The notes: generated from the letters alone by a model not told the origin. DNA of 5,816 nt from a virus (IMGVR_UViG_2671180695_000012), one strand, 5' to 3'. Shown: positions 3,978 through 4,054, numbered from the stretch's first letter. Numbers and translations: made by a program.

Positions 3978-4054
3978 GGACCGCCACCGGGGACTCGAAC
4001 CTCGCACACTCAACTTAAAGGGTTGACGCTCTTTCCTGATGAACTGGTGACGGT
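3978..4054 (-). tRNA. atypical tRNA-like gene; anticodon loop CCUUUAA (formally UUU, Lys-type) with non-canonical C33 and C8; possibly a diverged tRNA-Lys or a pseudo-tRNA
   Basis: 77 nt with a full cloverleaf: acceptor CCGUCAC/GUGGCGG (C1-G72, one U-G pair), D-stem GUUC/GAGC with GG in the D-loop, perfect anticodon stem UCAAC/GUUGA, T-loop UUCGAGU, CCA encoded. Deviations are C8 instead of U8, C33 instead of U33, and an A51-C63 mismatch. Confidence 0.45.

Follow-up and report, generated by a model that had tools for sequence, protein, structure and literature searches.

In Stx-converting lambdoid phages, the tRNA genes ileZ, argN, and argO are located between Q with the late promoter pR' and the stx genes, and argN, a tRNA-Arg (UCG), is the second tRNA, following the ileZ-like CAU tRNA. 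Two other phage tRNAs are close to the element described here and act against anticodon nucleases: phage T5's tRNA-Lys (UUU), which was shown to resist the AriB nuclease of PARIS and to rescue the phage (PMC11464382, PMC12409363), and the anti-OLD tRNA-Thr (UGU) of the lambdoid phage HK446, which is encoded between pR' and the holin gene (bioRxiv 10.64898/2026.07.10.737580). Here, we analyzed a tRNA-like gene with the anticodon UUU in a 5,816-nt stretch of viral DNA (IMGVR_UViG_2671180695_000012); this whole stretch is referred to as the window. The gene, which we call slot 2, lies on the minus strand at 3977..4053 and occupies the same slot as argN, second after an ileZ-like CAU tRNA. The original prediction for this DNA had described it as a Lys-type tRNA altered next to a nuclease cleavage position, and had proposed that it is either a nuclease-resistant decoy or replacement tRNA or a decaying pseudo-tRNA. 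On our analysis, the window copy is most likely an allele in decay, which derives from a tRNA-Arg remoulded to tRNA-Lys and is hitch-hiking in a tightly packed late-operon array; we give this reading about an even chance. The original interpretation was thus partly supported: the anatomy and both proposed options were retained, but we find a remoulded tRNA-Arg in place of an altered tRNA-Lys.

Compared with argN, slot 2 has in common the C1-G72 acceptor pair, the AUCNGGANA D loop, the UUCGAGU T loop, U73, and the encoded CCA. However, argN carries the anticodon UCG, U33, and G51·U63 and reaches 54 bits with the Rfam tRNA model, whereas slot 2 carries UUU, C33, A51·C63, C8, and two extra G·U pairs and reaches 31 bits. 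Like the T5 tRNA-Lys, slot 2 is phage-encoded, has the anticodon UUU, and is altered in the 39–41 segment of the anticodon stem, at which AriB acts in recognition and cutting (AAACC in T5, AAGUU in slot 2, and AAUCA in the host). In contrast to the T5 tRNA, for which AriB resistance and rescue were demonstrated, slot 2 is known from its sequence, and it combines an Arg scaffold, C33, a temperate phage, and decay. The HK446 tRNA-Thr resembles slot 2 in its location and in a divergent anticodon stem with G39; however, it is another isoacceptor, is experimentally validated, and carries U33.

Structure of the Slot-2 Element

ARAGORN drew slot 2 as a 77-nt cloverleaf with 7/4/5/5-bp stems, a 7-nt anticodon loop, and an encoded CCA (RNA, 5' to 3': CCGUCAC CA GUUC AUCAGGAAA GAGC G UCAAC CCUUUAA GUUGA GUGUG CGAGG UUCGAGU CCCCG GUGGCGG U CCA). 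The element had first been placed at 3978–4054, a shift of one base, and had been counted as the third of the array, which holds in plus-coordinate order but not in the direction of transcription, where it is the second. The features originally described were all present, namely the cloverleaf with encoded CCA, C8 (4046), C33 (4020), and an A-C mismatch in the T stem (A51 at 4002 opposite C63 at 3990). Slot 2 therefore departs from the near-invariant residues at positions 8 (U) and 33 (U) and from complete pairing of the T stem, and we further observed two G·U pairs (U4·G69 and U11·G24) and the discriminator U73. The residues for tertiary contacts are present: G18-G19 in the D loop (AUCAGGAAA), and U54-U55-C56 and A58 in the T loop (UUCGAGU). 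Neither ARAGORN nor Infernal returned an alternative fold with U33, which the original prediction had considered. The thermodynamic minimum-energy fold of the window allele, predicted for the unmodified RNA, is a non-cloverleaf rod.

The anticodon UUU (4019–4017) lies in the loop CCUUUAA, which was correctly recognized as the tRNA-Lys (UUU) loop with U33 changed to C, the host loop being CUUUUAA. The anticodon U34-U35-U36 is reportedly the main identity element for lysyl-tRNA synthetase (LysRS). Slot 2 has this element; however, it has U73 instead of the A73 found in the verified sequence of host tRNA-Lys.

With the Rfam tRNA model (RF00005), slot 2 scored 31.3 bits (E = 2e-5) on a 91-nt stretch, with an alignment spanning model positions 1–71. 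This score is marginal, only 2.3 bits above the gathering score of 29 bits, and slot 2 was missed by the Rfam scan of the whole window. The match exceeds chance, because its E value is low, homologues occur in 798 of 5426 complete Escherichia coli genomes, and the cloverleaf pairing is family-wide.

The anticodon stem of slot 2, UCAAC/GUUGA (4022–4026/4010–4014), corresponds to the strand-swapped stem of host tRNA-Lys, GUUGA/UCAAU. This likeness is probably a coincidence, because the same stem is present in the Arg (UCU) relative described below.

Evolutionary Origin and Distribution

A diverged or mutated host tRNA-Lys was rejected as the source of slot 2, since the two are only 58% identical. 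Identity to argN of Stx phages is 78–82% (76.6–84.5% by BLAST), and it reaches 90–91% for two metagenomic relatives, the Arg (UCU) tRNA of locus L621 and the U33 Lys tRNA of locus L625. These relatives were recovered by a metagenome scan keyed on the slot-2 D loop with the anticodon arm left free, which revealed three further states of the scaffold. In L621, slot 2 of a cassette that otherwise matches Ile2–slot 2–Thr–Gly is a tRNA-Arg (UCU) with the loop UUUCUAA; it shows 90% identity to slot 2 and has the same UCAAC/GUUGA anticodon stem, but differs in the anticodon, U33, A51-U63, U4-A69, U8, and a score of 53.5 bits. Unlike the window allele, it is predicted to have a minimum-energy fold that is in essence the cloverleaf, in which U32·A38 lengthens the anticodon stem. 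In L625 and L648, the scaffold appears as Lys (UUU) with U33, the loop CUUUUAU, and G51-C63. The third state, on metagenome contig Ga0153924_1002997 (L628, 3553–3630), has an 8-nt anticodon loop (CUUUUUAU), for which ARAGORN gave the anticodon 'tttt'; this state may have arisen by slippage or may represent a tRNA of the +1 frameshift type. In L625, four tandem copies of the STnc100 small RNA (77–132 bits) were also observed downstream of the slot-2 tRNA (1929–3044).

Across the slot-2 family, 97.9% of the cells in the cloverleaf pair, four pairs are changed on both sides (4-69, 7-66, 30-40, and 51-63), and the covariation score is above all 500 shuffles. Because the identity to argN and L621 is far above that to host tRNA-Lys, and because the family covaries as a cloverleaf, these comparisons indicated that slot 2 goes back to a tRNA-Arg of phages, whose scaffold evolved under a tRNA structure and acquired a Lys anticodon, rather than being a derivative of host tRNA-Lys. 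We propose that a C35-to-U change would first have turned the anticodon UCU into UUU on the phage scaffold, that charging would then have shifted from arginyl-tRNA synthetase to LysRS by the known identity rules, and that the lineage would subsequently have fixed C33 and the A51·C63 mismatch. If so, a tRNA-Arg turned into a tRNA-Lys is present in about 15% of complete E. coli genomes, and this would represent a clean natural switch of anticodon and identity.

Among the 798 carrier genomes, which together hold about 850 copies, 171 contain a match of at least 99%, essentially the window allele, and 533 fall in the 95–99% identity band. PGAP annotated the common allele (96.1%) as tRNA-Lys and also annotated a diverged allele (94.8%) in the next band; it placed no annotation on any of the ten 98.7–100%-identical copies among the matches listed, on the 100% copy in E. 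coli WS3294A (locus L001), or on the PPompW form, which has a 1-nt deletion and belongs to the 95–99% band. In a sample of 47 IMG/VR arrays that are complete for Ile2–slot 2–Thr–Gly, A51·C63 was found in 46, C11T in 10, T8C in 9, and C4T in 7, which suggests that the window allele arose stepwise through C11T, then T8C, and then C4T. As C33 is invariant, the A·C mismatch nearly so, and C8 is found in only nine arrays, the former two are features of the family, whereas C8 is confined to a sub-lineage; like C8, U4·G69 and U11·G24 are private to the derived allele or its sub-lineage. No closer copy of the L621 Arg (UCU) cassette was present in the 5426 E. coli genomes, where the best-matching arrays were Lys arrays (96.3%). 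A scan of genome contigs with a generic pattern returned housekeeping tRNA-Arg genes only, all with U33, and this pattern is too generic to define the range of the family outside E. coli.

In the ancestral arrangement of the cassette, Ile2(AUA)–Arg(AGA)–Thr(ACA)–Gly(GGA), all four tRNAs read codons that are rare in E. coli. In the genes of the window, AUA and AGA are used 13.9 and 7.5 times per 1000 codons, which is an enrichment relative to E. coli averages, and the common codons AAA and AAG are used 43 and 28 times. Since AAA and AAG are common, there is no obvious codon benefit from a Lys tRNA, and the slot-2 anticodon UUU, which reads them, is not one of the rare-codon anticodons (for AUA, AGA/AGG, or CGA) of lambdoid late-operon tRNAs. 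It is unlikely, in our judgment, that slot 2 is an ordinary working extra tRNA-Lys that adds Lys-decoding capacity for the late genes, has no link to defence, and carries C33 and the A·C mismatch as tolerated, near-neutral quirks. Such a role would fit the intact cloverleaf, CCA, and Lys-type loop, the annotation of the common allele as tRNA-Lys, and the fact that, of the eight codons counted in the window's genes, none is used more often than AAA; in addition, C33, C8, or a single mismatch in the T stem is each found in 1.5–3.4% of phage tRNAs. However, the host genomes have a median of six tRNA-Lys genes, so that there is little reason for an added supply, the score of the window allele lies at the threshold for detection, and the diversity of slot 2 equals that of non-coding DNA, as described below.

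Probable Decay of the Window Allele

The Rfam scores and predicted cloverleaf energies of the slot-2 states were 53.5 bits and -25.1 kcal/mol for the Arg (UCU) tRNA of L621, 53.2 bits and -27.0 kcal/mol for the U33 Lys tRNA of L625, 44.4 bits and -22.3 kcal/mol for the common C33 Lys allele, and 31.3 bits and -17.2 kcal/mol for the window allele. For the window allele, a competing non-cloverleaf fold is predicted to be 7 kcal/mol better than the cloverleaf. Two sister alleles were not reported at the Rfam gathering threshold: the EC571 allele (predicted cloverleaf energy, -17.3 kcal/mol; also at locus L122), which has G18A and five further transitions relative to the common allele, and the PPompW allele, which has its 1-nt deletion in the D stem and is widespread in genomes of the enterohemorrhagic E. 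coli type. Two signs of a pseudogene named in the original prediction were thereby largely borne out: disabling mutations were seen in homologous prophages, and the covariance score of 31.3 bits is at the threshold, with the ten listed copies and L001 unannotated by PGAP.

We addressed selection on slot 2 using 46 arrays that share at least 94% identity over 290 nt of non-coding DNA downstream, a set chosen because mosaic flanks confound the comparison. Slot 2 showed 10 segregating sites in 77 nt (nucleotide diversity, pi, 0.022), the downstream non-coding DNA 30 sites in 290 nt (pi 0.015–0.019; Fisher's test against slot 2, p = 0.54), and the three neighbouring tRNAs together 10 sites in 227 nt (pi 0.002–0.010; p = 0.015). 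Thus, in this small sample, slot-2 diversity was at the level of the flanking non-coding DNA and three times that of the neighbouring tRNAs, with no sign of purifying selection.

The neighbouring tRNAs of the window also carry damage. The window Ile2 has C42A, which leaves G28 mismatched with A42, and T54G, which replaces a near-invariant T, and scores 60.9 bits compared with 72.5 bits for the common allele; the window Gly has T11C (C11·A24) and scores 56.8 bits compared with 64.9 bits, so that each has lost 8–12 bits. In EC1908157, a sister genome with the same Lys allele, different extra changes are present in Gly and Thr, and Gly is no longer called by PGAP. These results indicated that the window array is degraded as a whole. 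In slot 2 itself, invariant residues are lost, the score is near threshold, diversity is neutral-like, and sister copies have been independently disabled, as in a pseudogene or relic.

We therefore prefer the reading of the window copy as a decaying allele, in which the remoulded tRNA would have been further derived by the loss of U8 and the weakening of two stems, within an array whose Ile2 and Gly are damaged. Slot 2 would be a relic on which selection for decoding is weak or absent, still co-transcribed and roughly tRNA-shaped, and it would persist wedged between useful neighbours. Its clean removal is unlikely, because the spacers to the neighbours are only 1 and 2 nt, and RNase P cuts at its ends may help to release the neighbouring tRNAs. 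On this reading, slot 2 is an ordinary decaying prophage tRNA, and it cautions that odd prophage tRNAs are not automatically counter-defence devices.

Several observations weigh against this reading. The anticodon and C33 were invariant in all 47 IMG/VR arrays, the Lys arrays occur in many mosaic backgrounds, and it is the Lys form, not Arg (UCU), that is carried by E. coli prophages (798 of 5426 genomes). The stem changes in slot 2 are mostly C-to-U with a G·U pair retained, and the loop has kept U34-U35-U36 and U36-A37-A38, which are needed for LysRS and for formation of N6-threonylcarbamoyladenosine (t6A). The polymorphism test was based on few, non-independent sequences, slot 2 did not differ significantly from Ile2 alone (p = 0.16), and the uniformity of Thr and Gly may result from gene conversion with the host copies. 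The anticodon arm reads U36-A-A-G39-U40-U41 where nuclease targets have the AriB site, and it contains no CNG motifs. Furthermore, a scan of IMG/VR (loci L248–L616) that excluded the slot-2 family identified 37 unrelated phage contigs carrying a tRNA-Lys (UUU) with the loop CCUUUAA. In these unrelated tRNAs, U8 and A73 are each present in the majority, and Rfam scores determined for ten of them were 44–73 bits.

Nuclease Targets and the C33 Variant

PARIS AriB cuts the tRNAs for Lys (UUU), Thr (UGU), and Asn (GUU) at U36AAUC↓A41, with U39 being essential and U39A abolishing cleavage (PMC12409363). P2-OLD needs paired CNG motifs at 28–30 and 40–42 (PMC12445682); it prefers tRNA-Thr (UGU) and also depletes tRNA-Gly (UCC), and tRNA-Lys (UUU) is cut once by OLD. 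PrrC targets tRNA-Lys (UUU) and cuts between positions 33 and 34, and phage-borne tRNA-Lys genes provide rescue from either PARIS or PrrC. Slot 2 has the anticodon of an AriB and PrrC target, and by sequence comparison alone its recognition or cleavage sites are changed. On that basis, it should escape AriB and OLD. The predicted resistance would come from the inherited Arg stem shared with L621 and not from C33, on which the original prediction had based it; C33 is not Lys-specific (see below), and C8 is private to the derived allele.

These comparisons raise a serious rival to decay, namely that slot 2 is a nuclease-proof replacement tRNA-Lys, made late, charged by LysRS via UUU, and reading AAA/AAG, in which the Arg-derived stem and C33 remove the sites of AriB, P2-OLD, and perhaps PrrC, and of which the window allele is a weaker but working form. 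We regard this as a tentative alternative with appreciably less than an even chance, and as more plausible for the common allele than for the window allele. In its favour, slot 2 has neither the AriB site nor the paired CNG motifs of OLD targets, the changed base C33 adjoins the PrrC cut, phage tRNA-Lys genes do provide rescue from PARIS and PrrC, the Lys form predominates in E. coli, and three different loop alterations (C33, U38, and an 8-nt loop) are found on the slot-2 scaffold. In this slot, HK446 has Asn (GUU) and the divergent Thr (UGU), the latter with G39, and its Thr rescues OLD-restricted phages, whereas the E. coli Thr does not. The 37 unrelated contigs with a C33 tRNA-Lys (UUU) point the same way; they represent 32 different tRNA sequences (30 when counted on the pattern-matched core), and the C33 Lys is the sole Lys (UUU) gene in the fetched flanks of 36 of them, the remaining one having a second, U33 copy. 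These tRNAs come from large arrays of uncultured phages and have the loop CCUUUAA identical to that of slot 2; they differ from it in their unrelated sequence, in U8 and mostly A73, and in their 44–73 bits.

Against a replacement role, the 46-array test gave no sign of purifying selection on slot 2, disabled sister alleles are common, and the window allele lacks U8, has a cloverleaf that is less stable by about 5 kcal/mol, and carries U73 rather than A73 and the A51·C63 mismatch in its T stem. The other array members do not behave as resistant variants: Thr is identical to host thrU and Gly is one base off host glyT, and the idea that the whole array is a set of nuclease-resistant variants was rejected on these grounds. 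Moreover, U33C does not change cleavage by gamma-toxin, the only anticodon nuclease for which our literature search found U33C data; none were found for PrrC.

The distribution of C33 also bears on this question. C33 was found in 12 of 496 (2.4%) tRNAs neighbouring an unrelated selection, compared with 0.6% for a purine at position 33; the background in phage tRNAs is about 1.5% for C8 and 3.4% for a single T-stem mismatch. Among variants of the Lys loop in the IMG/VR scan, A33 occurred five times and G33 never, and where a phage has a C33 tRNA, it frequently has more than one (as many as 8 of 36). In scaffold-matched comparisons among the matches listed, which are indicative only because the sequences are not independent, C33 was enriched in Ile (GAU) (31 distinct sequences vs. 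3, p = 1e-8) and Thr (UGU) (27 vs. 7, p = 6e-5) and depleted in Arg (UCU) and CAU tRNAs, and Lys accounted for about 8 of ~124 C33 matches compared with 21 of 127 for U33 as the baseline. The idea that C33 marks escape from PrrC specifically in tRNA-Lys was therefore rejected, since phage tRNAs for Ile (GAU), Thr (UGU), and Asn (GUU) carry it more often, with Lys, if anything, under-represented; this lack of enrichment in Lys also counts against the replacement tRNA. These data are indicative of a recurrent phage tRNA variant with a non-random anticodon distribution that is not Lys-specific, even though C33 is held to break a near-universal rule. Plant and fungal initiator tRNAs carry C33, and substitutions of U33 are reportedly tolerated in translation. 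Our literature search found no paper on C33 in phage tRNAs, nor anything relevant for ileZ, argN, or argO.

In its broadest form, the nuclease argument would hold that lambdoid phages made a rare-codon tRNA-Arg into a tRNA-Lys (UUU) invisible to PARIS AriB, P2-OLD, and PrrC through its foreign body and C33, and that C33 is a general, recurrent phage answer to anticodon-loop nucleases; we consider this rather doubtful. If it were true, the evaded defences would be those of rival P2/P4-type elements and restriction loci, and the weakened window allele would still give some protection. The anticodons found in these cassettes (Lys UUU, Thr UGU, Asn GUU, and Gly UCC) overlap the published PARIS and P2-OLD target lists. 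In HK446 (locus L246, NC_019714), the genes for Asn (GUU) and Thr (UGU), which follow pR' and precede the holin gene (35097–35252), are unannotated in RefSeq, and both anticodons are on the AriB target list.

The original prediction had also proposed a decoy, that is, an uncharged tRNA that binds or titrates an anticodon nuclease without a role in translation. A Lys-type loop on a foreign body would suit such a role. However, where tested (OLD), phage tRNAs replace the cut host tRNA rather than inhibit the nuclease, a decoy would have to keep the recognition site, which the slot-2 stem lacks, and slot 2 shows no sign of selection; we consider a decoy very improbable.

Genomic Context of the tRNA Array

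Annotation of the context was borrowed from the PGAP record of E. coli WS3294A (L001), in which the 421-bp tRNA segment is 100% identical. Together with the open reading frames (ORFs), it gives the gene order DUF968, RusA, Q-type antiterminator, tRNAs, class II holin, YdfR, and lysozyme, and the window is thus the late region of a lambdoid prophage. All features described here are on the minus strand. The Q-type antitermination protein gene (4274..5095; ORF and PGAP annotation of the identical region in L001) is upstream of the array, and the class II holin gene (3313..3528; ORF and PGAP) is the first lysis gene downstream of it. In the direction of transcription, the cassette reads Ile2(CAU)–slot 2–Thr(UGU)–Gly(UCC), with spacers of 1, 2, and 3 nt between the four tRNAs identified by ARAGORN. 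The CAU tRNA (4055..4130, read 4130–4055), annotated as tRNA-Ile (Ile2, ileZ-like) by PGAP, is 1 nt upstream of slot 2, itself identified by ARAGORN, its Rfam match, and homology to argN and the Arg (UCU) slot-2 tRNA. The tRNA-Thr (UGU) (3899..3974), identical to host thrU, is 2 nt downstream, followed by the tRNA-Gly (UCC) (3821..3895), one base off host glyT (T11C, giving the C11·A24 mismatch); both were found by ARAGORN and Rfam. The Rfam scores of the neighbours are 60.9 bits for Ile2, 73.8 for Thr, and 56.8 for Gly. Rfam matches to Plastid-ycf2 in the window were rejected as the antisense strands of the tRNAs.

A strong intrinsic terminator (AACCCGCCGCCGAGCGGGTT followed by a T run; 4167..4193) was found by a terminator scan 36 nt before the array, and is probably the late terminator tR'; a weak Rfam match to Trp_leader was rejected, as it is the hairpin of this terminator. 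A putative and weak late promoter pR' (TTGATT-16 nt-TGgTAAATT; 4241..4268), read by eye, was not reported by a consensus promoter scan of the window. From this layout, the array would be expressed only by Q-dependent read-through, late in lytic growth. Its location between Q with pR'-tR' and the lysis genes, after the ileZ-like CAU tRNA, is that of lambdoid late-operon tRNAs, and the slot behind Q that it occupies is the site of ileZ-argN-argO and stx in Stx phages; the tRNA slot behind pR' in lambdoid phages holds interchangeable cassettes.

In the Stx phage phi467 (locus L657), the Thr–Gly pair stands alone, after stxB and before the holin gene; therefore, the cassette is a fusion of two modules. 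The Thr–Gly pair is apparently a separate mobile module captured from the host thrU-tyrU-glyT-thrT operon. In the host locus (L247), tyrU and about 200 nt separate thrU and glyT, unlike in the phage pair. In E. coli WS3294A, an IS3-family element (L001, 3939–5152) lies between the holin and YdfR genes, and some carriers of the window allele are therefore visibly defective prophages.

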